From IMG/VR virus record IMGVR_UViG_3300029258_002279, positions 1-25,858 of that record: 25,858 nucleotides of DNA; one strand, given 5' to 3'. Within the stretch, counting starts at the first letter, position 1. Every line of letters begins with the position of its first letter. Under the pieces are notes generated by a model. That model had not been told where the DNA came from and did not search any database. It saw only the letters and a list, made by a program, of their open reading frames with translations. Both the position numbers and the translations under genes were made by a program. Shown piece by piece: positions 1-22,630 of the stretch. Source of the stretch: a virus (taxonomy: Duplodnaviria; Caudoviricetes).

Positions 1-1143
1 CACGGCTGGGACGCTATGCGATATGGCCGTGGAGAAATCAAGGTAATGGGCGGCACAGATTCATCTGCCGATCATTGCACTTTTGTTGGCATGGCTGCAG
101 CAAATGATAGTCAGAATAATAAGTGGGGGTTATTTCAGGAACAGGGCGGAGCTTACTTGTGGAAAGGGTTGATGTCAATCGGAGCTATCGGAGACAGTTC
201 AACAGGGACAGTACCGGTAGATTTCTATGATTCAAACAGGGTTATCTTCATAGATGATACTCCAGTAACATATCCTGATTTCAATAAAATCGAAATAAAC
301 GATGAGGATTCAATAGTCATATGGAATTCAATATCATTCATTGCGCTCGGAACTTATGCACCGGGCAACTTTGAAGTCGTTGACAACGCCGATGTCAACT
401 TTGACGGATGTTCATTTACCGATATGGGGACATTCATCTTCAAGTCAAACAGCTCAATTTTAAATTGCATTTTTCGCGGATGTAATCAAATTACTGCAAA
501 TGGCGCTGATATGACCGGAACAAAGATTTTAATTCCGAACATATCTGAAGAAGACAGCTCCTCAGCATCGCCGGAAACTGCAGCCCTGATATGGAATGTG
601 GCTACAAATCCTGACGGGTATCTTGACAATATGACATTCAGCATCGGAGACGAGCCGCACCATGCCATCGAATTTGGGACACTTTCTCCGACCTCAATGA
701 CGCTCAGGGGAATGACAACAATAGGATTCAGCGCGTCAAACAACGCAGAAGGTTCGACATTTCATGTTAAACGCACGAGCGGAACAGTAACAATAAACGT
801 GGTCGGCGGCATTGGGAACTTTACATACAAGTCCGAAGGAGCCACTGTGGTTATAAATACGGGGAAAACGTTAACTCTAATAGGAATTGAATATGGATCA
901 GAAGTGACAATTGTCAAAACGGGGCAGGACAGTTCTGCAGCTGTCGTGCACCATGAGGAAACCATCGACAGTACCGGGGAAACGGTATATTCGTACGATG
1001 CAGAGATGCAGGGAGAGGGCGTTGATATCTTGATTATGAACTTAGATTTTGAGCCGTTCCTGATCGAAAATTATATCCTGCCAACTTCAGATACGGAATT
1101 ACCTATATCTCAGATCGAAGACAGAGTTTACAGAAACCCGTAA
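1..1143 (+). CDS. Large acidic beta-rich virion protein (5'-truncated; putative head fibre/decoration)
   Basis: Frame 1 is open from base 1 (HGWDAM...), so the true start is probably upstream. Asp/Ser/Thr/Gly-rich, with beta-helix-like stretches (VNFDGCSFTDMG, ILNCIFRGC). Ends DRVYRNP, like the next gene. Confidence 0.7.
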   Translation, partial: HGWDAMRYGRGEIKVMGGTDSSADHCTFVGMAAANDSQNNKWGLFQEQGGAYLWKGLMSIGAIGDSSTGTVPVDFYDSNRVIFIDDTPVTYPDFNKIEINDEDSIVIWNSISFIALGTYAPGNFEVVDNADVNFDGCSFTDMGTFIFKSNSSILNCIFRGCNQITANGADMTGTKILIPNISEEDSSSASPETAALIWNVATNPDGYLDNMTFSIGDEPHHAIEFGTLSPTSMTLRGMTTIGFSASNNAEGSTFHVKRTSGTVTINVVGGIGNFTYKSEGATVVINTGKTLTLIGIEYGSEVTIVKTGQDSSAAVVHHEETIDSTGETVYSYDAEMQGEGVDILIMNLDFEPFLIENYILPTSDTELPISQIEDRVYRNP

Positions 1144-1155
1144 AAGGAGGAAACC

Positions 1156-2736
1156 ATGGCAAAAATTGTAGATCCAGATCAGTTGAACCAGGCAACTGAG
1201 GTAACGATCGATACAACCAACAAGGTTATCGAACTTTCGATAGCCGGAAACCTGGACAACAACTCTCCGGGTAAAACATCCGGTGTGACGATGCAGGCCC
1301 TGTATTCATTTCTCAAAGAAGAATGGCAATCAGATGCATCGTTGAACAAGTTTAAATTTCCACTAAAAGCCCTCACGAAATTTAAATTCGATTTTCAAAA
1401 CGACTGGGGGCCAAGCGAGGATTCTTCAAGCGGAGATACAAGACATCTGATCAGAGATGCTGGCTGGAAGGAAATAGATGATAAAGAATTCGCCTGCATA
1501 ATCTCACTTGGTGACATTGACAATCCAGCTGCCGACCAGGCTTATTATCAGCAGGTCGCGGGATTCGACCAGACAATCACGGATTTTGACAAAACCGGTG
1601 AGCTGAACGAAGCCATTATGACATATGACGGCACATCGGTTGACTACAGGGACTTCCTCAAGATATTCATCCGTGAGCAGGGCAAAACATATCTTGAAGG
1701 CAACCTCATTGTAGATCAGGGCTGGGCAAGCATTGAATATGATGCTTACCGTATGCCGCTTTACAATGAATCTGACCCGAACATATCCACGGCCGACGCA
1801 ACAATCGATTCAGACGCTCCATTTACGAACATGACTCTGGACTTCCTTGTCGGAGATTTGTTTGAAACATGGAATGGATCAGATTCTTATGTCGCAAACA
1901 ACGTCGTTCAGGGAAGTGACGGCAGGTGGTATAGGGCTGTATCGTCATCTACAGGTGTTGATCCAGTTAATTCGTCATCCGGGCCACCGTCTGCAGACTG
2001 GGAAGTTTATCCCGGTGAACGCCTCATCGGTACGAATTACTACGCATTCAACAGAATCATCGATGCTGGCGGGGAAGACAGCGCAGGAGCTGGGACACTT
2101 ACCCAAATTTACGAGTGGGCGCAGCGAATATTAAGAAAATCAACCGACGTCAATGATGATGTGAACGGAGACAGCTACGGAACCGTCTACGGAAAACTTG
2201 CCAAGGATCTCCTATCATTCGTAGGAAGCACTCTGGTCACGCAGCCGGGCGTGTTCATTGATAACTACAATATCAATGACCAGAACGACATGGAGTTTTA
2301 CGACATCACCGTCGACGGCGGCGGGCTGGACACGGAAGACGTGCCGGTAACATCTACCAAGCGCACATTCCCGTTCGTTGCTGCCGGTACGATGGTATTT
2401 TCATCTAACCTGGTTGCAGATGCAGACGCGAAATACTGGATGTATTTTGACAATGCGGGTGGAAATCAGTTCGATACAGCGAATGCCATTCTGGTTGATG
2501 ATAATAATGGAGATGACATCACCGGAAACATCACCCAGCAGAACATTACGTTCGATTTTGATTATACGAACAACGAGCAGGGCGGCAGGACAAAAGGAAC
2601 AGATGCTTCTGTGTGGGTCGTTGCAATGGGCCTTGATGATGCAGAGTGGGTTGCATCTCAATTCTTGATTACTCAGGCAACTGGACTCAGCTTTCCGGTC
2701 AACGCTGCTGATGAAAGGAATTATAGTAATCCCTAA
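1156..2736 (+). CDS. Virion structural protein, 526 aa, with an internal CBM5/12-like segment
   Basis: Strong SD AAAAGGAGG about 6 nt upstream. Very acidic. WNGSDSYVANNVVQGSDGRWYRA...DP...W (about 1870-2010) resembles a small carbohydrate-binding module. N-terminus is similar to ORF 3076. Confidence 0.75.
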   Translation: MAKIVDPDQLNQATEVTIDTTNKVIELSIAGNLDNNSPGKTSGVTMQALYSFLKEEWQSDASLNKFKFPLKALTKFKFDFQNDWGPSEDSSSGDTRHLIRDAGWKEIDDKEFACIISLGDIDNPAADQAYYQQVAGFDQTITDFDKTGELNEAIMTYDGTSVDYRDFLKIFIREQGKTYLEGNLIVDQGWASIEYDAYRMPLYNESDPNISTADATIDSDAPFTNMTLDFLVGDLFETWNGSDSYVANNVVQGSDGRWYRAVSSSTGVDPVNSSSGPPSADWEVYPGERLIGTNYYAFNRIIDAGGEDSAGAGTLTQIYEWAQRILRKSTDVNDDVNGDSYGTVYGKLAKDLLSFVGSTLVTQPGVFIDNYNINDQNDMEFYDITVDGGGLDTEDVPVTSTKRTFPFVAAGTMVFSSNLVADADAKYWMYFDNAGGNQFDTANAILVDDNNGDDITGNITQQNITFDFDYTNNEQGGRTKGTDASVWVVAMGLDDAEWVASQFLITQATGLSFPVNAADERNYSNP

Positions 2737-3092
2737 TGAAAATATCTGACCTGCCAAGACGAAAAGTTAGGTACTGGCTTTTTCGATTCAGGAACGAAGT
2801 CATTGAGGGAGTGTCATCAAATGGCGCGCCGCCCGGACTGAAAAAGCATTTTGAGAGTTTACCTCAATTTACGGGATGGGAAGACTTCGGGGTGAGATGG
2901 GACTTGCCTCACCTCGAAGACTGTTCCCATGGCGGGTGGTACAAAGTCGGAGAGTCATGCTCATGCGCCAATAAAAAAGTTCCACTGATATGTTCACCGA
3001 TCAGGCGATCAATATGGGGCGAATGGCGCAGGACGATTAAAAACGAAGCACCAGTATTTCCGGTAAAGGTGATAAATGGCAGCGAAAGTTAA
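2736..3092 (+). CDS. Hypothetical protein, 118 aa (basic, Cys cluster)
   Basis: Coupled to the upstream stop (TAATG) and overlaps the next start. No family recognised. Confidence 0.65.
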   Translation: MKISDLPRRKVRYWLFRFRNEVIEGVSSNGAPPGLKKHFESLPQFTGWEDFGVRWDLPHLEDCSHGGWYKVGESCSCANKKVPLICSPIRRSIWGEWRRTIKNEAPVFPVKVINGSES

Positions 3093-4497
3093 TTTCAATT
3101 ATACTTCAAAAATAATTGAAGTAACGCAGACTCCAGAGCTTGAAGTCGATTCAGGAGAGTCGTCCGCTACCGGCCAATGGGTTGTCGATATTGATGTAAA
3201 AATTGATATCTACTCAGACGGCAAGGAAGATTGGTTGTCTGATCCGACGTTAAATAAGTTTAATTTTCCGGTTCGGGCAATTGGTGGCCAAGAATTGCCT
3301 GGTGAAAAACAACTCGGCACTACATTCTTTTTGGATTACGGCTGGCGCATCCGCCCATATGAAGGCAACCATGTGCTCAGGGTAAATGGCAATCTGTATA
3401 CCGAAGAAGGCGACAGCCCATTTGTTCAAACACTCGGATCGTATAACGTCATGGTCATTAACACGGTTTCCTCCCTTGTTGATTCCACGGTCCAGCAGCT
3501 TGCAGAAATTGAATTTGCTTCATTCAGCGGCGGCGTGACGGTAGATGTGATCAATGGTTATCCCGGGACTGAATATGGAGACAAGCCCGTAGGAACAGCA
3601 ATCTATCCGTCAAACAACATGACAGACGCTCTATCCATAGCAGTTTCAAGGGGACTCACGACATTTTATATCATTGGAGACATTACCCTCGATTCAGGAA
3701 CAGACTTCCTTGAAATGAATTTCGTCGGAGAGTCCCCGACAAAATCGGTAATAACGATAGACGCAAATGCGGACGTAAAAAACTGTGAATTCTATGATGC
3801 TGAAATTCAGGGGACGCTTGATGGCAATAACGTTCTTCAGAACTGTATGATCGGAACCCTTAACTATGTAAATGGATTTGTAAGACAATGTATTCTGACA
3901 ACAGGGACAATTACATTAGGCGGGAGCGAAGAGGCCCATTTTCTGGACTGCTGGTCAGGTGTGGTTGGAACGGCCACCCCAATCATAGATATGGGCGGGT
4001 CGGGCCAGGATCTCGGGCTCAGAAATTACAACGGGGGCATTCAAATAAACAACCTCACGGGAAGCAGCAAGGCAAACGTGGATCTTAACGCCGGACATAT
4101 AATTATCGACAGCACCGTGTCAAGTGGTGAAGTCGTCGTGCGCGGTGTCGGGCAGATCACAGACAACAGCACCGGAGACGCATCAGTAGATACGGACGGG
4201 CTCTTAAATCCGGACGTTATCACGACAAGAGTGTGGGATGAAGCTACGGCCGACAGGCAGACACCAGGCACGATCGGCGGCGATTATTACAACCTTCTTC
4301 AGGGCTTTTCTTGGATGAACAAAATAATTACCAACAAGAAAACTCTCGAAAAAACCGGCAGCGTCTGGGAACTGATTATTTATGACGATGATAACGTCAC
4401 CCCGATTCTCAGGAAGGACATCAAGGACAAGGATGGAAACAATATCACGGATCTCGAAGCTGGTACGCTGGCGCAGGAGCTGAAATCAGATGTTTAA
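3076..4497 (+). CDS. Virion structural protein, 473 aa, with a beta-helix-like middle region
   Basis: SD AAAGGTG upstream. N-terminal motif shared with ORF 1156. Repetitive beta-strand pattern (VKNCEFYDAEI, LQNCMIG, VRQCIL, FLDCWSG). Confidence 0.75.
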   Translation: MAAKVNFNYTSKIIEVTQTPELEVDSGESSATGQWVVDIDVKIDIYSDGKEDWLSDPTLNKFNFPVRAIGGQELPGEKQLGTTFFLDYGWRIRPYEGNHVLRVNGNLYTEEGDSPFVQTLGSYNVMVINTVSSLVDSTVQQLAEIEFASFSGGVTVDVINGYPGTEYGDKPVGTAIYPSNNMTDALSIAVSRGLTTFYIIGDITLDSGTDFLEMNFVGESPTKSVITIDANADVKNCEFYDAEIQGTLDGNNVLQNCMIGTLNYVNGFVRQCILTTGTITLGGSEEAHFLDCWSGVVGTATPIIDMGGSGQDLGLRNYNGGIQINNLTGSSKANVDLNAGHIIIDSTVSSGEVVVRGVGQITDNSTGDASVDTDGLLNPDVITTRVWDEATADRQTPGTIGGDYYNLLQGFSWMNKIITNKKTLEKTGSVWELIIYDDDNVTPILRKDIKDKDGNNITDLEAGTLAQELKSDV

Positions 4498-4660
4498 CAT
4501 TCAGCCAGGGACAGGACTCGGATTCACAGCCTCAAAGGAAATTGCACTCGGGCTCGGGACTCCGTTTGAAATTGGAGAGGTTATCGTTGAAGTTTTTGAA
4601 AGTGCGTATAGTTTTATAAAAGCATTTATACAAAAAGGTTTTACAAGAGAAACGGTATGA
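4490..4660 (+). CDS. Small hypothetical protein, 56 aa (not in the ORF track)
   Basis: MFNIQPGTGLGFTASKEIALGLGTPFEIGEVIVEVFESAYSFIKAFIQKGFTRETV. AGGAG at 4475-4479. Fills the gap exactly, with ATGA coupling to the next gene. Confidence 0.65.
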   Translation: MFNIQPGTGLGFTASKEIALGLGTPFEIGEVIVEVFESAYSFIKAFIQKGFTRETV

Positions 4661-4986
4661 TAAATAAAATAAACCAGTCGATAAGATTAATGGAATTAAA
4701 TTATCCACTTATCTCTATTCTTAAACATTCACGGTCAAAAAAAGAAGTAGATACGTGTGTCAATGATTTTATTGCCAAGGTAAAAAAACAGAGAAGGTTT
4801 CTTGCAAAAAAGTATCATCCAGACATTTGTAATAACGGAGAAGAAATGATGAAATCAATTAATGCGGCATATGATTTCCTGACAACACTCAAAATAAATT
4901 TCACTCCGCCACGGCCACAGACTGTTTTTTATTATACATATTCGACATATGCATATGATACTACAACCTCAACAGGATATTTTTAA
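4657..4986 (+). CDS. J-domain (DnaJ-type) co-chaperone
   Basis: KKQRRFLAKKYHPD...EEMMKSINAAYDFL is the canonical helix II-HPD-helix III J-domain signature. Confidence 0.85.
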   Translation: MINKINQSIRLMELNYPLISILKHSRSKKEVDTCVNDFIAKVKKQRRFLAKKYHPDICNNGEEMMKSINAAYDFLTTLKINFTPPRPQTVFYYTYSTYAYDTTTSTGYF

Positions 4987-5169
4987 ATGGCAGAGTCAGC
5001 TAAATCGGTAACAAGGACAGAGGAAACCCGCGGGTTTGTGGAAGAAGTTCAGGTTACGGGTTTTTTGAAGCAAGAAACCACACGTGGTTTCTTGCTTGAA
5101 CAAAAACTCATAGCTTTCCTTGTCCCAAAAGAAATCACAGGTTTTTCAAGAGAGGAAACAGATGGCTGA
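4987..5169 (+). CDS. Small 60-aa protein made of 9-aa GF repeats
   Basis: Starts immediately after the upstream stop. ETRGFVEEV/QVTGFLKQE/TTRGFLLEQ/KLIAFLVPK/EITGFSREE periodicity. Confidence 0.65.
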   Translation: MAESAKSVTRTEETRGFVEEVQVTGFLKQETTRGFLLEQKLIAFLVPKEITGFSREETDG

Positions 5170-5551
5170 TATAACTAAACAATCATACGAAGAATTTCGG
5201 ATCCATGCCGACTTCGGGCTGAACATGGAAGCCGGCGAATATCTTCTTCCGCTGGATTCCGGCGGAGATTCGTCAGCCGCAGAAGTGTGTACCGTAAAAT
5301 GCTGGGATGTCAATGGCAATGATGTGACAAACGAAATGCTGGATTACGACACCCTTGCAATCATTGACGGCAATGCAACCGACGATGAAGACAATCCTGG
5401 TTCCGGCATGACGAACGCTGCTTTGCAGGTATTAATCAGGGGCGGGACTGAAGCATTGTCAAATTATAAATACACATTTTATGGCGTCACCACCCTTGAT
5501 CCGCCGAACAAATGGGAGAAAGATATAACCATGAGGGTAAAGGAGATATAA
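5162..5551 (+). CDS. Putative fibre/adaptor virion protein (Ig-like fold suspected)
   Basis: ATG at 5162 with GAGG upstream, preferred over the track's 5120 start. The pattern K..YEEF..HADF....GE.L ... VLIRGG....Y resembles small phage fibre-adaptor proteins (from recollection). Confidence 0.6.
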   Translation: MADITKQSYEEFRIHADFGLNMEAGEYLLPLDSGGDSSAAEVCTVKCWDVNGNDVTNEMLDYDTLAIIDGNATDDEDNPGSGMTNAALQVLIRGGTEALSNYKYTFYGVTTLDPPNKWEKDITMRVKEI

Positions 5552-5552
5552 A

Positions 5553-6068
5553 ATGGCACTCGTAGCAACAGCCGGTGCGTCCAATGCTAACTCATATGCA
5601 ACGCTCAATCAAGCAGAAAGCTACATGGAAAACAGGCTGCATTCGGATAACTGGGATGATTCAAACGATACCGACCGTGAGGCTGCGCTGATCTGGGCAA
5701 CGCAACTGCTCGATCGACTTTGCAACTGGGAAGGCTCAATTGCATCTGAGACGCAAGCGTTGAGGTGGCCGAGATTCTATGTCTATGATCCGGATGGAAA
5801 CTCTGTCGATGAAACTACAATTCCTCAATTCCTGATTGAAGCAACGGCGGAGTTTGCTCTATTCCTAATCGGCTCTGATCTGACAATTACATATGACAGA
5901 TCGACGGCACCGTATAAGCAGCTTGAAGCGGGGCCGTTAAATGTCGTATTCAACACGGGCAGCAATACTGAAATCGTGAAAGATTCGATCATGCCGGTGT
6001 CCGTGTGGGTCATCGTTCGTCCGTATTGCTCAAGGATCGGTGCCAAAAAAATGCTCATAAGGGTGTAA
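5553..6068 (+). CDS. Head-tail adaptor (DnaT-like family phage connector protein)
   Basis: ANSYATL..A..Y...R, E.ALI.AT..LD and QAL.WPR motifs are typical of this connector family. SD AAGGAG. Position precedes head closure. Confidence 0.8.
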   Translation: MALVATAGASNANSYATLNQAESYMENRLHSDNWDDSNDTDREAALIWATQLLDRLCNWEGSIASETQALRWPRFYVYDPDGNSVDETTIPQFLIEATAEFALFLIGSDLTITYDRSTAPYKQLEAGPLNVVFNTGSNTEIVKDSIMPVSVWVIVRPYCSRIGAKKMLIRV

Positions 6069-6069
6069 C

Positions 6070-6429
6070 ATGGGACTTCAGGACACATTCAAAGCGGCCG
6101 CCCAGACCATATTCACGGCACTGGGCGATGTGAAAATATCGGTTACATATCGAATAAGAACGATGGGTTACAGCCCTGCCACAGGGAGAACTTCGCCATC
6201 GGATACCGATTATGCAATCACAAACTGTATCCGAATAGATTACAGGGCGGATGAAATTGACGGCGTTGCGGTAAAACCGAAAGATTTCAAGCTGATGATA
6301 CCCGTTGACGACCTGACACCCACTCCTGAAGTCGATCATTTCATACTGATTGACTCAGTAATACATAATGTTGTAAGCTTTGAAAAAGATCCTGCCGATG
6401 CGGTGTGGACGATACAGGTGAGGGCGTGA
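6070..6429 (+). CDS. Head closure / head-tail joining protein
   Basis: Y.P.TG...D, Y...EIDG..V...D.KL and DPA...W.IQVR motifs; synteny. Confidence 0.75.
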   Translation: MGLQDTFKAAAQTIFTALGDVKISVTYRIRTMGYSPATGRTSPSDTDYAITNCIRIDYRADEIDGVAVKPKDFKLMIPVDDLTPTPEVDHFILIDSVIHNVVSFEKDPADAVWTIQVRA

Positions 6430-6854
6430 TGTTTGAGAAGCAGAAAGAAAAGATAGATCAGATTATTCAGAATAAAATGGTTCGAGTTGCAAATCATATT
6501 TCTAAAAGATTGACAGATAGCGAGGTTCCAGTTGTATCTGGAGAATATCTGTGGTCACATGAGGTAGCAACACATGCACGATCATATCCGAGAGCACAAG
6601 TTGCTGAAATGGAACCACATAAAGCGGACACTGCATTATCCTCAGCGAGTGCATCGGCGTTTAGAGAGCAAAGACACCAAGAATTAAAAGCAAACGCATC
6701 AAGATTAATTAATGCTGGAAACAAGCAAATTGCATTTAACAATAAAGCAAAACATGCAAACTTTGTTGAACATGTTGGATGGAAAAAAACTCCACCATAC
6801 CATGTGTTTAATAAAGCATTTGTATCAACAATGGAAAGAAAAAAATCACTATGA
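6429..6854 (+). CDS. Neck / tail-completion protein (HK97 gp10-like position)
   Basis: TGATG-coupled ATG at 6429. PV.SG.Y..S and FNN.A.HA.FVEH.G motifs; synteny. Confidence 0.65.
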   Translation: MFEKQKEKIDQIIQNKMVRVANHISKRLTDSEVPVVSGEYLWSHEVATHARSYPRAQVAEMEPHKADTALSSASASAFREQRHQELKANASRLINAGNKQIAFNNKAKHANFVEHVGWKKTPPYHVFNKAFVSTMERKKSL

Positions 6855-7243: not shown

Positions 7244-7373
7244 AAAAAACAAATGCAGAGGTTGCGGCAATCCATGTGAAAAAGAATATTGTGACACATG
7301 TGAATCGTGGCTTGCTATGAAGCTTGACATCATAAAGGAACAAGAAACCAAAGGAGGAAACAACAATGAGTGA
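7230..7373 (+). CDS. Small zinc-ribbon protein, 47 aa (not in the ORF track)
   Basis: MKASKKNKCRGCGNPCEKEYCDTCESWLAMKLDIIKEQETKGGNNNE has two CxxC pairs. Bridges the terminator-tube gap, overlapping both genes. Confidence 0.55.
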   Translation: MKASKKNKCRGCGNPCEKEYCDTCESWLAMKLDIIKEQETKGGNNNE

Positions 7374-8307
7374 TGCTAACCGAGTAGGACTTCGTTACAT
7401 CGAAGAAACAACCTGGAATTCACTGCCAGCAGCACCGGCCATGACCCCGATTCGGTACACAGGTGAATCCATGATTCCGTCGGTGGAGAATATTGTATCC
7501 GCTGAAATTCGGGACGACCGGATGATAACGGATCTCATCCAGGTTTCACGGTCAAACACCGGCGGGTTCGAAATTGAGCTTTCCGCTGGCACATTCGACG
7601 AGCTGATTGCAGGTGCCCTGTTTTCCGACTGGGTAGGCGACAGTTCTTCATCCGGAGATATAATCAGAAATGGCGTAACGCGCCATTCGTTCAGTATTGA
7701 AAAAGCTTTGCTGGACATTGATGAATATTTCCTTTTCACCGGCATGATGGTCAATTCAATGACATGGACGCTTGCCACCAGCTCCATTGCCACCGGGTCT
7801 TTCGACATGCTCGGGAGCGGTGCGACGCTCGGACAGACCACAAACGCGAACAGCGTCAACGCCGCGTCCACCACTGCGGTTCTGAACTGTATGGGCAACG
7901 TTGCATCATTGAAGGAAGGCTCTTCGCTCACCACCATGGCGGGCATTTATGTGCAGGAACTTTCATTCACCGTTGCCAACAACCTGCGTCCGGTCCACCA
8001 GATCGGATCAAACACCATTGCTGAAATTGCGGTAGGTAAATGCGACATCACGGGGACGCTTAACGCTTATTTCACCAATGACCGTTTGTTCGATCAGTTC
8101 CTCGCCGGAACTGCCACACAGATCGAATTCAAAATCATGGATGGCGCGGGCAATTATTATACCGTCCTGTTTCCTGAAGTTAAATTCGAGACCGAAAGCG
8201 TGGTGGCTCCAGGGCAGGATCAGGATGTCATTGAGAACTTGACATGGCGTGCATTACGGGATGCGACTGAAGATGCCATGATCAAGATAACTCGAAACTT
8301 AGTCTAA
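7366..8307 (+). CDS. Major tail tube protein
   Basis: Strong SD AAAGGAGG. LRYIEETTW, R.TGES, SAEIRDDR, SFSIEK and ITGTL.AYF motifs of siphovirus tube proteins. Upstream of chaperones and tape measure. Confidence 0.85.
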   Translation: MSDANRVGLRYIEETTWNSLPAAPAMTPIRYTGESMIPSVENIVSAEIRDDRMITDLIQVSRSNTGGFEIELSAGTFDELIAGALFSDWVGDSSSSGDIIRNGVTRHSFSIEKALLDIDEYFLFTGMMVNSMTWTLATSSIATGSFDMLGSGATLGQTTNANSVNAASTTAVLNCMGNVASLKEGSSLTTMAGIYVQELSFTVANNLRPVHQIGSNTIAEIAVGKCDITGTLNAYFTNDRLFDQFLAGTATQIEFKIMDGAGNYYTVLFPEVKFETESVVAPGQDQDVIENLTWRALRDATEDAMIKITRNLV

Positions 8308-8330
8308 CATGTCCAACGGACATGTTAGAC
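8302..8330. repeat. Perfect 13-bp inverted repeat overlapping the tube stop codon
   Basis: GTCTAACATGTCC-AAC-GGACATGTTAGAC, followed by CAATTTT. Confidence 0.85.
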
Positions 8331-8336
8331 CAATTT

Positions 8337-8405
8337 TAGGGCCAGGATAACCTTGGTTTACCCCGTGCCAGAAATGTTCCAATATTGAATGGTGTCCTGG
8401 CCCTA
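8337..8405. repeat. Second long-range inverted repeat in the tube-acetyltransferase intergenic region
   Basis: TAGGGCCAGGA (8337-8347) pairs perfectly with TCCTGGCCCTA (8395-8405) and extends inward with a G-U pair. Confidence 0.75.
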
Positions 8406-8422
8406 TACCCAAAGGCCACTAC

Positions 8423-8980
8423 ATGGAAGTAAAAGAAACCGTGAGGCATGTGTCCATAGAGGAAGCAATTGCCGTAATGGCAAAAGACAATATCGATTTT
8501 ATCGAAATGCACAAAGGGTATTTTATGGCAGCAGATCTTCCATTCAGGCCACCGCTTCATATTGGATCCATTATTGTATGGCCGCCTGTCGACATTCACC
8601 CATCTGCTAAAATCGGCGAGGGTGTTGTTATCGGCAGGTACACGAACATATGCGGACCAATAGAAATCGGGGCACACACAAGAATTCAGGGATTCTGTTT
8701 CATCCCTGACAACATTAAAATCGGAGAACGGGTATTCATCGGGCCGAATGTGACATTCACGAATGTCAAACGTCCGAGGATACGTGAGAACGCAATGAAA
8801 ATCAGGGACGGCGTTACCATTGTTGAAAATGATGCCAATATTGGTGCCGGGGTGGTCATCTGCCCCGGCATCAAAATCGGAGCGCGCTCATTAATCGGCG
8901 CAGGCGCAGTCGTCACAAAAGATGTGCCACCGGATACGATCGTAATCGGTTGTCCCGCAACACACTACGGGGGTGTCTAA
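8423..8980 (+). CDS. Hexapeptide-repeat (LbH) acyltransferase, WbpD/QdtC/WxcM-like sugar N-acetyltransferase
   Basis: IHPSAKIGEGVVIG, IGERVFIGPNVTFTN..RPR, IGAGVVICPGIKIG..SLIGAGAVVTKDVPP...GCPA. Start codon uncertain. Confidence 0.85.
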   Translation: MEVKETVRHVSIEEAIAVMAKDNIDFIEMHKGYFMAADLPFRPPLHIGSIIVWPPVDIHPSAKIGEGVVIGRYTNICGPIEIGAHTRIQGFCFIPDNIKIGERVFIGPNVTFTNVKRPRIRENAMKIRDGVTIVENDANIGAGVVICPGIKIGARSLIGAGAVVTKDVPPDTIVIGCPATHYGGV

Positions 8981-14622: not shown

Positions 14623-17600
14623 ATGTCTATCACTCTCGACCCAACTTTAAAGACAGCTCAGGACGGTGTTAGCCATCGTCCGATCTTCAAACTCACAAGT
14701 TCTCCAATGGGTGAAATAATCCCAACATCTGGCAATTATTTTAATACCCTGTCAACAACGGAAGAAGAGCCGCATATTACACTACTTTCAAGTGGCAGGC
14801 TGGCTGTAATCTTGGAAAGAGCGAATGCGTTAAAATATCTTTATACACCGACAGATAGAAGTGAATTTACTGAAGTTTCAATCTCAATTCCATCCACACA
14901 CAATGCTTCAGGGGCGTGCCTGTGCGAACTTACTGATGGAAATGTCGGCATCATATTTGCTACAAACAACAGATATCTTTATTATAAAATCATAACGCCA
15001 ACAGGAACGACTGTCACAGAATACACACAAATTTATGATGCCGGATCTGGAGCTTGGGTAGCAAATCCATATGTTATCACGCTGGCAAACAATACCTATC
15101 TGCTTGTGTATCCCGAAGGAACCGGAACCCCGCCAAGTGAATCAAACACATATTATCTACAGCAAAGAACCTCAAGCAATTTTACTTCATGGAGTGCGGC
15201 AACAAATATCACGCCGGGGGCATTCGCATCTTTAAGGTATTGTAATAATCCACACCTGCTTCAAATTGCAAGTGGCAGAATCATACTGCATGTTGATTAT
15301 CTGTCCCAATATATCAATAATGTTGAATTGAATAATGTTTTTTATATGACATCTGACGATAACGGATCAAGCTGGTCGGGCGCAACCAACGTAACAAATA
15401 TAACCGAAATAGGAGAATCGGCCATCCATCCAACAGCTGCGGAAAAAGAAAACGGCGATGTTACATTCATGTATGCATTTAAATCTGTTGTCAAAATGCT
15501 TGATGAAAACATGGACGGGTATCCATATGGAGAAATAAAGACTGGTGGATTTATTGAGTTTGATCCTGATACAAGAAAAATCATCTGGCATCATGGCATT
15601 CATAGTGTTGGGTTACCACATGTTGGCATGACAACAATAAATGTCGATGGATGGGAATGGAATGAAACGTTGACAGAACAAACGATCCCTGCTCTGTGGT
15701 CACAAGGGTATGACATTTACGGTGAATCACATTGTGAGTGGACGGTAGCCAGATTGTCATATGGAAATCCTGCAGGAATTCATGCAATAAATCATAACAC
15801 AAATGAAATTAAACTGTATATGTTTGGCCAATATGCCGGAAATGGTGTTACATATGCTTTCAATTATGCTTGTGGCTATGCAAATCAGAATCAAAAGTGT
15901 TTCATGGCGGTAGAACATGATGGATTACAAAAATTATTTATTCTTCATCAATGTTCTGGTTATGGCTCTTATGATGCCAACCTTGGCTGGATTGATTTAA
16001 ACCAGGTTGCAGATCCGATAAGTGGATTATATGACTATACTGAACTTTGGAGAGACGCTGGATCTAGTAGTATAAGCACGGCAATCGTGGGAACTGTTCT
16101 TGGTGCAGGATCATCAAGGTGGGATTATGTCCATGATTATTTCTGCACACATACATGGAATTATCGTCACACAAATCCAGGACTGGTGTGCTGGAATACT
16201 AATGGAACAATTGTCCTTGAATTAAGCAGGGCTACTTTAACTGAATTTCCTCGTTGTGGGGTTAGAAGTTTTATGTTCGTTGAAAATGATGTGTATTTTT
16301 CATTTCCATACTGGGAAGACGAGCCAGACAGAAGGGGTCTTGGTCATTATCAGGCATCAACAGGGACAGTCATATTTCATCAGCCGACATGGGCAACAGT
16401 TAATGATTTCGAGTTTGACCATTTTGTTGACATGGGTGATGGGCGTATATTGATGACTAGTAATAATACGCTGGCAAATGGCGGTGGAATTGCAATCTTT
16501 GATACGACTACTGGGTCATGGCAAATAATAAATGATGATACATATCCAGGTTTTGGAAGAACAGGGGCATATTGGTCTAGTCTTGCATACGATCCGGTAA
16601 CAAAAACAATTTTTGCAATATATAATGATCAATTAATTGCATTTTCGGAATACGGCCCATATAGTTCATTGATGAGCACAGATATTACTAGTGTTAATTC
16701 AACATTTGATTATGGCGATTACTATACGTTCACGGCAAATTTCTTTGAATATCAATCAAACATTGTTTATGATCCTGATGGAGTGCTCTGGGCTGTGTGG
16801 CAACACCTTGAAGCTGGAACCGAATATTCTGCAAAATGGGTTAACCTTCTTGATGATCTTGAAATCACAGACGATGTGTCAATAAATACAAACATCGAAA
16901 TCAAATGGGACATTGAAAAGCCAACCCAGTTAAAATTCGGGCTTGCGCGTGGACATCTGTTCGATCCACAAAACTTTATGTCAACGCTGTCTCCATTTAT
17001 GAGAAAGGGCCGAAAAATAGTGGTTGAATTTGGTGAAAAGGTTAGTGATACGGACTACTATCAACCACAAGGAGAATTTTGCATAAAAAAAACCGCCATG
17101 TCATACTCGACAAGAGATTACCCAGAACTTAAAGTAACTGGAGAAGATTTCAGGGTGCTTTGGGAAGACAATGAAGTCGTTGCAACAATGTATTATGAAA
17201 ATCAAACCCCTTATAACACGCTTTATCATATATTAACCAACCATGGAGACATGGAAGATACAGAATTAGACATCCCAAGCCCTTTTGAAAATGCTCATAA
17301 TCTGCATGCTCAGTGGGTCGATATGACGCTTGAAGATATCGTGAAAGAAATACTCGACCACTTCGGATATTTTCCGTTTGTAAATGTAAGCGGTGATTTT
17401 GAACCAAGGTATATCGACATGGATAAAGCAACTGATCATGCATATACAAATGTTACTCAGCTCACGGAATACAGCCCGAACGATTCATACTCAACATTCA
17501 TTAATCGGGTCATTGTAAAGGGCATTTCACATGTATACACCGAAGTTCTTTACGGCGAAGAATGTGTTACAAGCTTGAACGGAACGACAGGTTTCTGGGG

Positions 17601-18318
17601 TAAGGAAAACGATGAAGTTGTCTGGTATTCGAATGATCATCAGGATTCATGCAGATATCCAAGGCTTGAAATCATAGAAAGCGTTGCCAATGCTGGTATA
17701 TTCGGAATTCAAATGGGCGGTGGCCATGAATCAATAACGGATGTTGATGAAGATGAGCATTATGTAATTGTTACGATTGTTGCTCCGGATCTCACCGGTT
17801 TGTTCATACTGACATGTTCTTCATTGGTTACTTTGGGAGTAGCGGCACTTATGTGCGATGGAGCTTTTACTGGCAATTGCGGCTGGTACATCATGGGCTG
17901 TATGATGCTTGTGAATGTAATTGTATACATCCTCGGGGCAGTCGCTTCATATAATTACAATATATGGGCTCGTCCTATTGGCCACGAAAAAAGTACTTTT
18001 CAAGCAAATGCAGATGATGAAGATTTTCAGCGTGAAATCGGAAATAAAATCATACCAACAACCATTGACGATCCAATGGCATATACAATTGCAATTTGTC
18101 AATCGGTTGCGGATCATGAACTTTCAATCGTTATGGCACAAAGAAGAAGGTTAAAATTTAAAAAGACTGCACATTTAATGGACGAGATCGGCGATGTGCT
18201 TGAGCTGATACATCCGTATTCAGGTGAGGTTTTAAAGGTATTTGTGCCAACCATGACACGAAAAATGACGATAGGCAAAGAATTCATTGATGAGATTGAA
18301 GGCTGGAGAATCATGTAA
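14623..18318 (+). CDS. Tail tip/hub protein with N-terminal beta-propeller (BNR/Asp-box) domains, 1231 aa
   Basis: Asp-box motifs YMTSDDNGSSWS and RTSSNFTSWS. C-terminal hub-like part (QGEF.I, LKVTGED, INRVIVKG, EIGDVLEL). Position after the distal tail gene. Confidence 0.75.
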   Translation: MSITLDPTLKTAQDGVSHRPIFKLTSSPMGEIIPTSGNYFNTLSTTEEEPHITLLSSGRLAVILERANALKYLYTPTDRSEFTEVSISIPSTHNASGACLCELTDGNVGIIFATNNRYLYYKIITPTGTTVTEYTQIYDAGSGAWVANPYVITLANNTYLLVYPEGTGTPPSESNTYYLQQRTSSNFTSWSAATNITPGAFASLRYCNNPHLLQIASGRIILHVDYLSQYINNVELNNVFYMTSDDNGSSWSGATNVTNITEIGESAIHPTAAEKENGDVTFMYAFKSVVKMLDENMDGYPYGEIKTGGFIEFDPDTRKIIWHHGIHSVGLPHVGMTTINVDGWEWNETLTEQTIPALWSQGYDIYGESHCEWTVARLSYGNPAGIHAINHNTNEIKLYMFGQYAGNGVTYAFNYACGYANQNQKCFMAVEHDGLQKLFILHQCSGYGSYDANLGWIDLNQVADPISGLYDYTELWRDAGSSSISTAIVGTVLGAGSSRWDYVHDYFCTHTWNYRHTNPGLVCWNTNGTIVLELSRATLTEFPRCGVRSFMFVENDVYFSFPYWEDEPDRRGLGHYQASTGTVIFHQPTWATVNDFEFDHFVDMGDGRILMTSNNTLANGGGIAIFDTTTGSWQIINDDTYPGFGRTGAYWSSLAYDPVTKTIFAIYNDQLIAFSEYGPYSSLMSTDITSVNSTFDYGDYYTFTANFFEYQSNIVYDPDGVLWAVWQHLEAGTEYSAKWVNLLDDLEITDDVSINTNIEIKWDIEKPTQLKFGLARGHLFDPQNFMSTLSPFMRKGRKIVVEFGEKVSDTDYYQPQGEFCIKKTAMSYSTRDYPELKVTGEDFRVLWEDNEVVATMYYENQTPYNTLYHILTNHGDMEDTELDIPSPFENAHNLHAQWVDMTLEDIVKEILDHFGYFPFVNVSGDFEPRYIDMDKATDHAYTNVTQLTEYSPNDSYSTFINRVIVKGISHVYTEVLYGEECVTSLNGTTGFWGKENDEVVWYSNDHQDSCRYPRLEIIESVANAGIFGIQMGGGHESITDVDEDEHYVIVTIVAPDLTGLFILTCSSLVTLGVAALMCDGAFTGNCGWYIMGCMMLVNVIVYILGAVASYNYNIWARPIGHEKSTFQANADDEDFQREIGNKIIPTTIDDPMAYTIAICQSVADHELSIVMAQRRRLKFKKTAHLMDEIGDVLELIHPYSGEVLKVFVPTMTRKMTIGKEFIDEIEGWRIM

Positions 18319-19967
18319 TGCCTAAATTATACGGCAGAAAATTCGCTCACAGATTTGTCGATAAAAAGATGAAGCCGAAGGCTGAAACGCGTGATGCTAT
18401 CATTTTTGAAGTTGATGAAGACTATTATGTCTGCAAATGCCGCATACAAGGATCAAGCGAATATGTTGATGCTTATTATCCACGGAACAGGGCAACAATT
18501 CCAAAATGGATGAAGCCGGGGAATGCTGTTCGTATTCTACATAGGACTGGTGTGCGTGGCTATGCTGAAGTCATAGGGCATGGCGGTGCCATTCCAATGC
18601 CAATGGCAGGATATCCGTCACATCCACCTATCTCTGGTGTCGGGAATCATATTGAATCAGGTTTAGAAATAACGGTGGTTGGTTGTCTGACTGTACACAT
18701 AGGCTCGGGCACGGTTGTCATTGAAGGCGAAACGATAACCATGACAGGCAGCGAATCTGGATATCCAATAATGGATGAATCTAATCCAGAAATGACAATG
18801 CATGAAATTTATCCGCCAGCTGACATGGGTGATCCTGCGGGCACAGATTACTGGACAATGAACGAAGAAGATTCATCTGGAGATGCATATCCAGAAGCGG
18901 TAACAATGAGTGAAGTGTTTGCGCCAATGACCATTGGGGTTGGTGGTGGGTACTTTGACATTGATCCATTAGATCTCGGCGGGCAGGCACATTTCAGATA
19001 TGACACATTTCAAGTTGGATCAGATGGCATTATTGATTATGTCAAAGGCGAAGAAAGTTATGGATCTGCGCCAACACCACCAGCAGTTGACGGTGGCCAT
19101 GTCCAAATAGGGCCATACATTCTTATTGTAGGCGACCCAGACGGCGGAACACAATGTCTGACCGATGCCAATGTCGGATGGGTATGGACTGAACCCATAG
19201 CATCTGGCGTTGAACTTGACTATAATCCAGAAATGCAATGGGCTACATCATATGCCAGTATTTCAGTAAACGTTATCAACCAATATGGATATACATATGC
19301 AGATCCGCGAACATACACCGCAACACTTGTTCGCGGAACCGGACAAATCTGCACTGCATATGGCGGAACATGCGATGACGATAGCATAGTAGTGAATTCA
19401 TCATCTGGTGGTGCAGGTTTTCAATATAATCGGGATTATTCAGCGTATCCAGAATCAGAAGGACAAATAGATCCAACAAATATTACTCTTGAAACTTGCC
19501 CGCACATTGCTATTACAGTTACAGGCACCGGTGGGATGCCATCGTGGTACGGATTTGCTTTCTTTCAGCTTTATACAATCGGTGATTTTCCGATTCAGGT
19601 CTTTGGCAGTGGATCATGGGATCCCGGGTCAACAGGCTATAATGTAATTGAACCAGATTCAAGTGGTGGTGCAGAGTTTACGATTGACTGGGGGGATTGG
19701 AAAAATGCTGAGATAATGCTAACACAAGATTCAACGCTTTCCTTTAGCGGTGCATCCGATGCAGACAAGCTCACATTACTGATAAGGCAGAATGGAACTG
19801 GGGGCTGGACACCATCTCTTCCGGCAAACGTCACATATGGCGATCAAATAACGGAAGCCAATCTAAGCATATCAACAGATCCATATAGCAGAACATATCT
19901 TGGATTTATTTACGACCTTGAAACAGACAGTTACGATCTTGTAGCAAATGTTTCTGGATATGTATAG
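18318..19967 (+). CDS. Tail fibre/spike-like protein, 549 aa
   Basis: OB-fold-like N-terminus (CRIQGS...KPGNAVRI). C-terminal TIDW...LT....F....LTLLIRQNGTGG..P...ST....LGFIYD module, common at the ends of phage tail proteins. Confidence 0.65.
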   Translation: MPKLYGRKFAHRFVDKKMKPKAETRDAIIFEVDEDYYVCKCRIQGSSEYVDAYYPRNRATIPKWMKPGNAVRILHRTGVRGYAEVIGHGGAIPMPMAGYPSHPPISGVGNHIESGLEITVVGCLTVHIGSGTVVIEGETITMTGSESGYPIMDESNPEMTMHEIYPPADMGDPAGTDYWTMNEEDSSGDAYPEAVTMSEVFAPMTIGVGGGYFDIDPLDLGGQAHFRYDTFQVGSDGIIDYVKGEESYGSAPTPPAVDGGHVQIGPYILIVGDPDGGTQCLTDANVGWVWTEPIASGVELDYNPEMQWATSYASISVNVINQYGYTYADPRTYTATLVRGTGQICTAYGGTCDDDSIVVNSSSGGAGFQYNRDYSAYPESEGQIDPTNITLETCPHIAITVTGTGGMPSWYGFAFFQLYTIGDFPIQVFGSGSWDPGSTGYNVIEPDSSGGAEFTIDWGDWKNAEIMLTQDSTLSFSGASDADKLTLLIRQNGTGGWTPSLPANVTYGDQITEANLSISTDPYSRTYLGFIYDLETDSYDLVANVSGYV

Positions 19968-19975
19968 GAGGCAGA

Positions 19976-21046
19976 ATGAGTCTTTTATGGTTTGACAGCT
20001 TTGGCACTTATAATACTTTTTTAGAGCCAATAAAGATTAACAAGTTGTATGCAAATTCTGGCTGTTATTTCTATGCGAGTGGTGGAAGGGGTGACCGTGG
20101 ATATTATCGCGGGAGCCATGGCACGGACTTTAAAATTGACATTAGTGATGTAAATCCAACTACAGTTATATGTGGATGGGCACTATATATAGACAGTTCA
20201 ACTGTTCCCGGATATCAGGCCAGTTATCCATTAATAAGATTTATGGATAGGTTTGCAAGGGATACCAGCTATACAGGATCACACATCTATGTCTACATAA
20301 ATTCTTCAAGATATTTTGAAGTGCGTAATTATTCTAATACAATACTTGGAACAGGCACAACTCCTATTCAGCCTTATACTTGGTATCATATACAAATGAA
20401 GGTATATATCCATGATTCAAACGGAACCGTTGAAATAAGGGTTGAAGGTGAAACAGATGTCGATCTTTCAAGCATTGACACCTGCAATGGTAGCAATGCA
20501 TATGTTGCATGTGTAGATTTAAGGGGGCTGCATTCATATATACAGACGTGGTGGAGTGACTTCTGGCTTGTTGATCTAAGTGGAAGCCATAATAATGACT
20601 GGCTTGGTGATCGCAGGGTAGATTGCATAAGACCGAATGCAAATGGAACGCATAACGACTTTGCTTCACATGACGAAGGCGACAGTTCTGGTGCCGCTGG
20701 CGATTATACCAATGTTGATGAAAACTATTCAAACCTTGATACAGATTATGATTATGCAGATGACGTTGGTTCAAAAATATCTTACAACATGGAACCGCTT
20801 GATGTTCTCGGTGCTGAAATAAACGCCATCAAAACGATTGCGACTGTTCGCAGGGAAGGTGTTGGGTATAAAAAAACAAAGACGTTCAATATAATTAACA
20901 GCGTTGAAGATTCTGGTGATGAATTCACGCTCCTTGGCAGTTATACAACAGATATTAAAATGGATGAATTAAATCCAAATGACAGTTCTGCTTTTGATGA
21001 AAATGATATTGCATCAATTGAAGCTGGGATAGAGATAACAGAATAA
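19976..21046 (+). CDS. Virion protein with a ConA/LamG-like lectin domain
   Basis: SD AGGAGG. TWYHIQMKV.I.DSNGTVEIRVEG jelly-roll motif. Confidence 0.65.
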   Translation: MSLLWFDSFGTYNTFLEPIKINKLYANSGCYFYASGGRGDRGYYRGSHGTDFKIDISDVNPTTVICGWALYIDSSTVPGYQASYPLIRFMDRFARDTSYTGSHIYVYINSSRYFEVRNYSNTILGTGTTPIQPYTWYHIQMKVYIHDSNGTVEIRVEGETDVDLSSIDTCNGSNAYVACVDLRGLHSYIQTWWSDFWLVDLSGSHNNDWLGDRRVDCIRPNANGTHNDFASHDEGDSSGAAGDYTNVDENYSNLDTDYDYADDVGSKISYNMEPLDVLGAEINAIKTIATVRREGVGYKKTKTFNIINSVEDSGDEFTLLGSYTTDIKMDELNPNDSSAFDENDIASIEAGIEITE

Positions 21047-21714
21047 TGGCAGAAAATCTTTGTTTAGATTCATCAGTTATTGTCGATCAAAGTTCAGATT
21101 ATGGCGGTGGGACATATCCTGCTGAAAATGCCATTGACGGTAACACTTCTACGTGGTCTCTTACAAATGGGGGGGCTGGTGAATGGTGGAAGGTTGATCT
21201 TGGTGCCATTTATGAAATTGCATGGATAAAGATAGTCAAAAGATCGGGTTATGGAACAAGACCAAAAAATTATTATATTCAAGTTTCAGACATGTGGGAT
21301 TTTGAAGATTCTGCGGCAGTCGTTAGAACGTTAATAACGGCAACGGATGAAGATTCAGAACTTAATGAATATGGGCCAGACGAATACGAAGATTCTTCAA
21401 CAGGTATTATAAAAGCAAGATATTTAAGAATATTATGTCATACAACAAATCAATACATAAATCTTGCAGAAGTAGAAATTTATGCAGAAGCAGATGATGC
21501 AAATATCAGACTGTCAACAATTTCTATTGAAGCACTTAGGGATGGTGCCCACAACGCCAGGCTGTCAACAATTTCTATGGAAACACTTAGGGATGGTATC
21601 CACAGTACCAGACTATCGACAATTGCAATAGAAGTTTTACGTGATGTTGAAGCGCCGATATCGGCACAAAGGACTTCAATGTTTCTGGTCTTTCCAAACA
21701 TAATTATTAGTTAA
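21046..21714 (+). CDS. F5/8 type C (discoidin/CBM32/F-lectin-like) domain protein with C-terminal 17-aa repeats
   Basis: QSS.Y....PAENAIDGN..TW...EWWKVDLG....I..I...R, ARYLRI and INLAEVEIY. Confidence 0.8.
   Translation: MAENLCLDSSVIVDQSSDYGGGTYPAENAIDGNTSTWSLTNGGAGEWWKVDLGAIYEIAWIKIVKRSGYGTRPKNYYIQVSDMWDFEDSAAVVRTLITATDEDSELNEYGPDEYEDSSTGIIKARYLRILCHTTNQYINLAEVEIYAEADDANIRLSTISIEALRDGAHNARLSTISMETLRDGIHSTRLSTIAIEVLRDVEAPISAQRTSMFLVFPNIIIS
21508..21645 (+). repeat. Three 51-bp tandem repeats encoding RLSTI(S/A)xExLRD
   Basis: Units start at 21508, 21559 and 21610 (AGACTGTCAACAATT / AGGCTGTCAACAATT / AGACTATCGACAATT). Confidence 0.85.
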
Positions 21715-21724
21715 CGGGGGTAAC

Positions 21725-21982
21725 ATGGAACAGGTTTTAAAGGAAATCCAGAATACAAATCGGTTATTGGTTGAAATTTCAAAACAGCTTAATCAGAACT
21801 GGAAATTACTTGAAGAGTTGTTTTTGAAAAAAGATGAAAAAAATTTTGAACAGCAGCAAAAAATTAATAACATAAAGACAATGATGGCTGGAGTGCAGGG
21901 ACAACTTAAACTTAATCCTGCCCTTAAAAATAACCCACAAATTATGCAAATAATAAATGCAATGACAGCTTTTACAGAATAA
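21725..21982 (+). CDS. Hypothetical helical protein, 85 aa
   Basis: SD GGGGG. Coiled-coil-like, Gln/Asn/Lys-rich. Confidence 0.65.
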   Translation: MEQVLKEIQNTNRLLVEISKQLNQNWKLLEELFLKKDEKNFEQQQKINNIKTMMAGVQGQLKLNPALKNNPQIMQIINAMTAFTE

Positions 21983-21994
21983 AGGAGGTACGAC

Positions 21995-22210
21995 ATGGCG
22001 TTCGGTGAAGCAACAGATTATCACGATCCATATGAAGATGAAGTGACGCAATTTAAGCCGTCACACATGAACCTTCCTATCGATCAGCTTGATTATCAAA
22101 TTGGAGTAAATGTAACGGCTATTGCATTAAGGTTACAGGTTAGCGATTTCCTTGTATATGATGGAGAAATTGTAACTTATGAAAATGAGCCAGTGGTCAG
22201 CTGGCTATAA
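21995..22210 (+). CDS. Hypothetical acidic protein, 71 aa
   Basis: Perfect SD AAAGGAGGT. Confidence 0.7.
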   Translation: MAFGEATDYHDPYEDEVTQFKPSHMNLPIDQLDYQIGVNVTAIALRLQVSDFLVYDGEIVTYENEPVVSWL

Positions 22211-22225
22211 AAAAGGAGGAAAACA

Positions 22226-22630
22226 ATGGCTGATTTAAAAGAATGTTGCGAGTCGTTACTCAGCACAACGACTGTTACCTTGGCAGGTACCGGCCAAACT
22301 ACGCTTTATACGGTCCCAACCGGAAAGACCTGCGTGTTAACAAAAGCAATTATCCGCGTAGCTGCAGATGCCGGGGCATCCGTTATCAGAATTGGAAGGA
22401 GTACAAACCTTGACGACTTCCTCAATTTGCAAAACCTTGGCAATTTAGACGCTTCCGGAGATGCTGCAATCCTGAAGCCGTCAACACCAGACTATGTTGA
22501 TTCTTCTGCAGATGCTGCAGGAGTCGAATGTCTAAAAACGTATGCAGCGGGGGTTGCTATACAAATTGACGTTCTTTCCGCACTTGGTGGGGCCACCAAC
22601 TACGTCGATTTGTTTGGATATTTATTATAA
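22226..22630 (+). CDS. Small beta-rich probable virion protein, 134 aa
   Basis: Strong SD AAAAGGAGG. TTLYTVPTGKT motif. Carries a DSSA motif. Confidence 0.7.
   Translation: MADLKECCESLLSTTTVTLAGTGQTTLYTVPTGKTCVLTKAIIRVAADAGASVIRIGRSTNLDDFLNLQNLGNLDASGDAAILKPSTPDYVDSSADAAGVECLKTYAAGVAIQIDVLSALGGATNYVDLFGYLL

Follow-up and report, generated by a model that had tools for sequence, protein, structure and literature searches.

The window analysed here is the whole of IMG/VR record IMGVR_UViG_3300029258_002279, 25,858 nucleotides from the late region of an uncultured marine siphophage, opening inside a gene, and our subject is the tripeptide Asp-Ser-Ser (DSS), which recurs across its proteins as a short tag. 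The genes run in the order fibre-like protein, head-tail adaptor, head closure, terminator, tail tube (PF18906), hexapeptide acetyltransferase, chaperones, tape measure, hub, tail-tip proteins and lysis genes. A capsid gene is present neither in the window nor in its sister contig, G001 (36 kb). The metagenome runs that hold the window come from sediment and seawater. A GTDB scan yielded one 34% fragment but neither a close prophage nor a host, and the sole hint of a host is a tube homolog at 74% named from a Desulfobacterales metagenome-assembled genome (MAG). Here and below, contig and genome sets taken from homology scans are those among the matches listed.

The initial annotation had reported 15 in-frame DSS triplets in eight genes, and each lies at the coordinate it gave. 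The following residue is likewise as described (Ala five times, Ser, Thr and Gly three times each, Val once), and the five near-variants are present: NSSSG (1969 and 19395), DSAG (2077), DSGESSA (3148) and DSAA (21307). Its rough chance level of two to three agrees with the 2.71 that we computed from each protein's own composition over 31 open reading frames (ORFs; 8,287 residues), giving a Poisson p of 1.9e-7 for the observed 15 and placing DSS first among the 8,000 tripeptides of the window. The enrichment holds against composition-matched shuffles. In 300 shuffled proteomes the smallest p of any tripeptide was 4.5e-7, above that of DSS, and the largest DSS count was 7; block shuffles of 10, 20 and 40 residues reached 15 in 0 of 2,000 runs each, with a maximum of 11.

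The excess is confined to one order of letters. SDS, SSD and ESS each occur once, and the other forms stay at chance (observed/expected: DSA 3/2.9, DST 4/3.1, DTT 4/3.7, DTS 2/3.1, DSL 0/2.7; DSG likewise). The tags occupy acidic sequence contexts. The tape measure, hub, chaperones and lysis proteins are free of DSS in the window, as had been noted, but the observation is weak, with fewer than one expected there. Nor does the hub stand as a tag-free class, for two DSS occur in the hub of the sister, each in a stretch that is shorter in the window's hub.

The signal lies at the level of protein, as first proposed. Codons at the tags do vary, although only in two pairings, GAC-AGY (7) and GAT-TCN (8), and the remaining Asp-Ser pairs of the window show an equal bias (21 GAT-TCN, 8 GAC-AGY, 3 GAT-AGY and 1 GAC-TCN). 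The sequence GACAGTTC underlies 6 of the 15 sites, and all six of its occurrences fall in the DSS frame; GATTCNTC does so in 7 of 7 plus-strand copies, with two further copies on the minus strand. At 22499 the three codons are all synonymously changed in the sister. No longer DNA sequence is common to the inserts, and a DNA-level motif as the cause was rejected on this dissimilarity and on the frame restriction.

Alignment with homologs indicates that the DSS loops are lineage-specific and mostly insertions (Table 1). Excluding two sites in a lectin protein leaves 13 testable sites; eight are insertions of 4-10 residues relative to most relatives, and five are small gains or substitutions. The six-residue tube insert is found in 3 of 120 homologs, which are 92-98% identical, and in none of the 80-81% homologs. 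Besides the window it is confined to the sister and to a homolog at 92%. The 92% homolog reads GDSSVAGD, so the core is retained and the flank altered. Because remoter tube homologs carry insertions of 60-190 residues at the same point, the loop probably faces outward. The solved tube homolog 8XAN_B lacks the insert, and a tube model built from a four-sequence alignment has a predicted local distance difference test score (pLDDT) of 36. Elsewhere, the sister reads DSSEDSSAA at the 5267 site, and the single DSS-bearing homolog at 20681 is a match to the sister's sequence. At 22499, L118 has an eight-residue gap and L117 reads DMSS.

Table 1. DSS sites of the window and one near-variant, compared with homologs (aa, residues).
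Feature	Positions	Strand	Comparison with homologs and predicted structure
DSS site 1, g01	58..66	+	span 19 vs mode 18 in 67 homologs; DSS in 1/67; coil in model
DSS site 2, g01	193..201	+	~6-aa insertion; span 19 vs mode 13; DSS in 1/67; predicted coil
DSS site 3, g01 (EEDSSSAS)	553..561	+	~10-aa insertion; span 19 vs mode 9; DSS in 2/67
DSS site 4, g01	928..936	+	span 19 vs mode 17; DSS in 0/55; predicted coil-helix boundary
DSS, 526-aa protein (1156-2736)	1420..1428	+	4-aa insertion; absent in 7/7 homologs outside lineage
Variant DSGESSA, 473-aa protein (3076-4497)	3148..3168	+	inside 11-aa insertion; absent in 6/6 homologs outside lineage
DSS, 129-aa protein before head-tail adaptor (5165-5551)	5267..5275	+	10-aa insertion; lacking in G006, G009 and L049
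DSS, tail tube (7366-8307; PF18906)	7639..7647	+	6-aa insertion after helix; residue 92 of 313
DSS, 549-aa tail protein (18318-19967)	18870..18878	+	with 7-aa insertion; 0/15 outside homologs
DSS, 549-aa tail protein	19656..19664	+	mainly substitution from near-motif; homologs PDVSG, QDSVG, QDSGG, SSGG
DSS, 356-aa tail-tip protein (19976-21046)	20192..20200	+	0/142 homologs; span 17 vs mode 15
DSS, 356-aa tail-tip protein (EGDSSGAAG)	20681..20689	+	7-aa insertion; span 17 vs mode 10; DSS in 1/148
DSS, 356-aa tail-tip protein	20981..20989	+	substitution, no indel; DSS in 0/146, DS in 28/146
DSS, F5/8-type lectin protein, N-terminus (21046-21714)	21067..21075	+	distant lectins only as comparison
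DSS, F5/8-type lectin protein	21391..21399	+	gapped stretch vs distant lectins
DSS, 134-aa protein (22226-22630)	22499..22507	+	66% sister protein keeps DSS

Four of the sites fall in g01 (1-1143), a 5'-truncated beta-helix/lectin-like protein whose sister version has 548 residues. The model of the full sister protein (68 sequences in the alignment, pLDDT 91.7) adopts a tailspike-like beta-helix (structure match Z 15.8, root-mean-square deviation 3.2, 225 aligned). Mapping of tags on structure, which covered this protein, places all four in predicted coil or at a coil edge, one of them disordered; the region of site 3 is the only segment of the model with a pLDDT below 50. The same families show no excess outside the lineage: 67 g01 homologs together have 16 DSS against 20.2 expected, and 148 homologs of the 356-residue protein have 21 against 28.0. 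Among loci L001-L118, only pieces of the window and of G001 reach a DSS p below 0.01.

The sister contig is 96-98% identical to the window in its left half and 30-37% in the tail tip, and it too is tagged, with 17 DSS against 4.3 expected. In its tail tip, six of nine DSS sites lie where the window has none, two of these being the hub sites. DST is also elevated in the sister (12 against 4.0). Ten untagged homologs (45-51%) are nearer to the window's 549-residue protein than is the tagged sister allele (37%), which indicates convergent gain; at the 18870 loop that allele reads DDSSSGD with a different indel. Different tail modules were probably tagged separately, which would imply selection on the motif.

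The two tail tips, window 14623-21714 and G001 (L019 1826-10284), are swapped between co-occurring strains whose neck and tube genes are 96-98% identical. The sister also has two paralogs of the 356-residue protein and a tape measure of ~1,737 residues against 1,507 in the window. The sister alone has an HNH/AP2 endonuclease gene inserted ahead of the head-tail adaptor (L018 10382-11101), and both forms occur together in four runs.

The initial annotation had suggested a search for glycosyltransferase (GT) genes, and such genes, together with a sulfotransferase gene, are found directly upstream of the window's first gene in the sister, which reaches 5.1 kb beyond the window start. Its upstream genes encode, in order, the C-terminal part of a GT2-TPR protein, a GT2, a GT-like protein, a PF01973-like protein, a fusion of PF01973-like and GT8-like domains, a sulfotransferase and a small Cys-rich protein, the enzyme genes lying within region 1-4143. 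PF01973 (Maf_flag10) is present as a precomputed annotation on an identical protein, P0121. The GT8-like domain has no Pfam hit; its atlas neighbours (0.93-0.94) include PF01501 clusters, its homologs are annotated as glycosyltransferases, and it reads TGLDT where relatives read LDLDT. For the sulfotransferase, the best solved-structure matches are protein-tyrosine sulfotransferases in 7 of 9 rows, at weak E values of 0.009-0.3. In a FastTree tree, with support values not considered, it nests among the sulfotransferases of a different siphophage family that has lambda-like tubes. The simplest reading is that the module (Maf-like, GT8-like and sulfotransferase genes) and the tags were gained together.

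It is very likely, judging from read depth, that the window's own strain also carries this island. Both strains are present in the four runs, as an HNH-less joint and an HNH-bearing contig with depths of 15.7 and 17.1 in run X1. The depth of the island in these runs is 24-41-fold, approximately the summed depth of the strains, and a 34.6-fold contig spans from the island edge to beyond the window's first base. The sister's first ORF, used as a query for upstream extension, matched only itself, and in the metagenome scan close contigs reach no further upstream than G001.

Comparison with relatives narrows the genes that accompany the tags. G006, the nearest outgroup (tube 80%) and alike in gene order, has the first three upstream genes in common (two at 73% and 68%), after which it has a different gene set with no module, and it contains 1 DSS against 3.0 expected. 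Its capsid gene lies ~0.5 kb upstream of the GT2-TPR gene. In the complete outgroups G002, G004, G007 and G008, which gave no match to the Maf-like, GT8-like or sulfotransferase profiles, DSS is not in excess (observed/expected 7/7.3, 11/10.6, 5/5.9 and 4/10.3). As a cause of the tags, any GT island was ruled out by G006 and by G002, which has a GT2 gene, and the Maf-like gene alone was ruled out for this motif by L099, L271 and phage D3.

With the sulfotransferase alignment we found 55 further contigs, in which DSS occurs 99 times against 58.7 expected (159 control loci, 211 against 220.9), while DST, DSA, DSD and DSG are flat. After clustering at 70% the figures are 72 against 51 (p 0.003) in sulfotransferase loci and 168 against 184 in controls. 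DSS lies within the last 12 residues in 7 of 759 proteins of these loci compared with 2 of 1,820 control proteins (p 0.004). With nine near-duplicate loci removed, the 33 loci with a GT8-like domain have 59 DSS against 29.5 (51 against 28.5 without the cement family), and the 13 loci negative for it have 10 against 10.8.

In the presumed donor family, a cement-like protein encoded beside the capsid gene (PF09956, weak) carries a loop such as MSDSSGADP. All 14 of the 14 genomes with the GT8-like gene have an x-Ser-Ser loop in this protein, as against 0 of 3 others (Fisher p 0.0015). The paired serines are missing in L271, which has the Maf-like and sulfotransferase genes and no Ser-Ser in its cement or tube loops, in L099 (Maf-like only) and in the cultured phage MaInes, which has no island. 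This suggests that the cement loop is the native acceptor and the GT8-like domain the reader. Several lambda-like tubes (L220 3059-3493, L239 12508-12936 and others) have acidic Ser-Ser variants in the loop after the first strand (NEDSSSSAG, GTEDSSSQ, GTDESSGA), and some end in DSDSGS-type or GDSSSG tails.

Taken together, we consider it fairly likely that the DSS tags are acceptor sites for phage-encoded O-glycosylation of serine, probably primed by the GT8-like domain and sulfated. The acceptor role put forward in the initial annotation is thereby kept where it draws on enrichment, lineage-specific insertion and, now, the adjoining sister enzymes; its link to Bacteroidota and its tag-free hub are not, and its capsid acceptors would concern a gene that lies outside both contigs. 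The module would have come by horizontal transfer from a family of siphophages in which an x-S-D-S-S-G loop is native to the cement protein, and would act in the cytoplasm as particles assemble, glycosylating serine in loops of the form D-S-S-small. The GT8-like domain is taken as the putative priming enzyme because it is the best correlate of the tags. Maf-like domains would then extend or cap the glycan with nonulosonic-type sugars, and the sulfotransferase would add sulfate, giving the particle an acidic coat. Selection for a denser acidic coat may then have spread the tags, mostly as short in-frame insertions, over tube, neck, fibre-like and tail-tip proteins, with shielding from proteases, or from binding surfaces and non-host cells, as the possible benefit. 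A bolder version, in which a mobile module of three parts (a GT8-like primer, a sialyl-type transferase of the Maf-like kind and a sulfotransferase) reads a strict DSS sequon and builds a sulfated proteoglycan-like coat, the sequon then being selected into every exposed virion protein and anew in each swapped tail module, is possible but rather doubtful.

Several observations weigh against the glycosylation of the tags by this module. The enzymes lie outside the window itself, and the PF01973 scores of 26.8 and 20.6 bits are below the cut-off of 34.6. Known Maf enzymes lack a recognised sequon, according to the accessible part of PMC12645811. The 20981 site is weak, as it derives from a family-wide P-x-D-S-A-type turn, and two locus homologs read DDSS or DDSN. 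DSS ranks only 265th of 8,000 tripeptides in the deduplicated sulfotransferase loci, because shared families inflate many tripeptides, and short fragments make up most of the 13 loci negative for the GT8-like domain. The cement contrast is phylogenetically non-independent, its three negatives being divergent members, and the GT8-like gene was not found in the complete L271 genome in a search that had no positive control. Finally, although the tags track the module across relatives, a co-occurrence that the initial annotation had suggested testing, some carriers show no genome-wide excess: phage P1 (PmgO, a 29% homolog of the Maf-like protein, and PmgQ, a 31% homolog of the GT8-like protein) has 7 DSS against 8.3, S20, with both gene types, 0 against 2.9, and D3 (Maf-like only; first 26 kb) 1 against 2.3. 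The complete genomes G011 and G012, with all three genes, have 6/4.7 and 7/5.9 (observed/expected), and their cement proteins do have DSS. The module thus does not force genome-wide tagging, and the window's lineage is an extreme case. The Maf-like gene of G012 (G012:C1:29285-29887; L221 806-) has one internal TGA and is either broken or read through.

The alternative that survives best, though unlikely, is a non-sugar modification made directly on serine, most likely sulfate, by an action on acidic peptides like that of tyrosylprotein sulfotransferases, or else phosphate or an acyl group. The weak resemblance of the sulfotransferase to protein-tyrosine sulfotransferases and the acidic tag contexts fit such a modification, as does the fact that the DSS-enriched loci were found via the sulfotransferase gene. 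Against direct sulfation, sulfotransferase loci negative for the GT8-like domain have no DSS excess, and the serine pair is absent from the cement and tube loops of L271, which has the sulfotransferase. Phosphorylation is disfavoured in that neither the window nor the sister contig shows a kinase, about half of the genome lying outside both.

Somewhat less probable still is that the tags work without modification, forming acidic hydroxylated loops that alter surface charge or bind calcium or sediment minerals. The source metagenomes are sediment and seawater, hundreds of tube subunits would presumably give avidity, and (DSS)n peptides bind hydroxyapatite, DSS repeats being described as bone-targeting peptides in the accessible part of the literature. 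Yet charge or mineral binding would need neither the D-S-S order, nor single copies, nor co-occurrence with one enzyme module.

A neutral origin, through a DNA-level insertion habit or repeat or through loop and N-cap preferences of Ser/Asp-rich beta proteins, could draw on the six sites with GACAGTTC and on those that arose from common turns. It is largely refuted, and we regard it as improbable: the frame restriction of both DNA sequences, the dissimilar inserts and the lack of excess in homologs of the same fold all stand against it.

Virion proteins assemble in the cytoplasm, as is expected of tail tube and tail-tip proteins too. The general O-glycosylation system of Bacteroidota, which the initial annotation had invoked, uses the motif D-(S/T)-(A/I/L/V/M/T/S/C/G/F), is host-encoded and requires protein export, as described in the accessible part of PMC8550257. 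The resemblance is a three-residue Asp-Ser-x in which, by the same partial source, DSS is allowed and observed, including within the extended Tannerella motif. It differs in that the window shows enrichment of DSS alone, joined by DST in the sister, on proteins presumed cytoplasmic, and the proposed link is not supported. Modification of the tags by a host enzyme (Bacteroidota-type O-glycosylation, a kinase or a transferase), with the phage module serving another target, is accordingly the least probable of the alternatives: P1 and S20 do carry module-like genes without tags, but DSA, DST, DTS and DTT are unenriched, the only host hint is the Desulfobacterales MAG, and it is the phage module that the tags accompany in unrelated families.

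Documented glycosylated phage virions are those of a few mycobacteriophages, with glycans at protein C-termini. In Che8 and Rita the glycans lie at the C-termini of capsid and tube (PMC11256854; accessible part of PMC12619734). The tagged lineage would share with that system phage-encoded glycosyltransferases (found in the 96-98% sister and, from depth, expected in the window's strain), presumed acceptors among the virion proteins, the tail tube included, and a proposed shield function. It differs in having short internal tags, gained by insertion, in at least eight unrelated proteins, accompanied by Maf-like, GT8-like and sulfotransferase genes; the tube tag, for instance, is far from the C-terminus. 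The related sulfotransferase-bearing family does have C-terminal DSS tags.

Maf flagellin nonulosonate O-glycosyltransferases carry PF01973, according to the part of bioRxiv 10.1101/2020.06.03.131540 that is accessible. The sister has two copies of a PF01973-like domain, and Maf enzymes, as is proposed for the phage ones, work in the cytoplasm, O-glycosylating Ser/Thr of a polymeric surface structure. Unlike Maf, the phage proteins are single domains of ~200 residues that score below the Pfam cut-off, and the Maf-like gene alone fails to predict tags (L099, D3, L271). The pmgO and pmgQ genes of P1 (hdmB and hdmD of P7) and orf7 of D3 are distant homologs, at 26-31%, of the Maf-like and GT8-like genes in phages that, unlike the window's lineage, have no DSS excess; pmgO and pmgQ are non-essential in P1, as stated in the accessible part of PMC10695390. 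They lie at L284 31592-34150 in P1, and orf6.5/orf7 of D3 at L282 5691-6409, with orf7 between the capsid and adaptor genes. As laboratory phages, P1 and D3 would allow a test of virion glycosylation.

Animal proteoglycan attachment sites are acidic Ser-Gly sequences. The tags resemble them in combining an acidic residue, serine and small residues in flexible loops, with a sulfated glycan predicted here, but only by analogy.

Our literature search, which left most subscription journals uncovered, found no paper on DSS or a sequon tag in phage virion proteins, and GenBank phages gave no match to this sulfotransferase. What is new here is the strict DSS form, its gain by insertion in a siphophage and its convergence in swapped tail modules, together with a candidate native acceptor on the cement protein and a contrast between tagged and untagged lineages that leaves three genes as candidates for the enzyme. 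That three-gene contrast makes the idea directly testable in Escherichia coli. If the proposal is correct, virion modification is a force behind the sequence evolution of phage structural proteins, and acceptor sites can be named for very common, uncharacterised phage glycosyltransferase islands, including the distant P1 homologs. It would also provide, in the tag and its enzyme, a small pair for cytoplasmic glyco-engineering. On the bolder version, the three residues would be a portable tag for cytoplasmic glycosylation, and glycan-coated phages would become predictable from sequence alone.

Some further features were noted. The hexapeptide-repeat acetyltransferase gene (8423-8980) lies between the tube and chaperone genes and could encode a glycan acetylator; related genes occur in nine sulfotransferase islands, and the tag-free G006 also has one (73%). 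A small J-domain gene (PF00226; 4657-4986) stands among the virion genes in the window and in L121, and no such ORF is called there in the sister. L056 has long C-terminal poly-Ser tracts (7521-8633, 19338-21302) beside its own sugar-enzyme cluster, with SSS 41 against 7.1 and DST 11 against 2.8; it was rejected as a case of DST tagging, as DS[ST] is not significant (12 against 6.9). In raw counts over the whole window, GACTC/GAGTC occurs 18 times and GATTC/GAATC 80 times, a scarcity that possibly reflects restriction-site avoidance.

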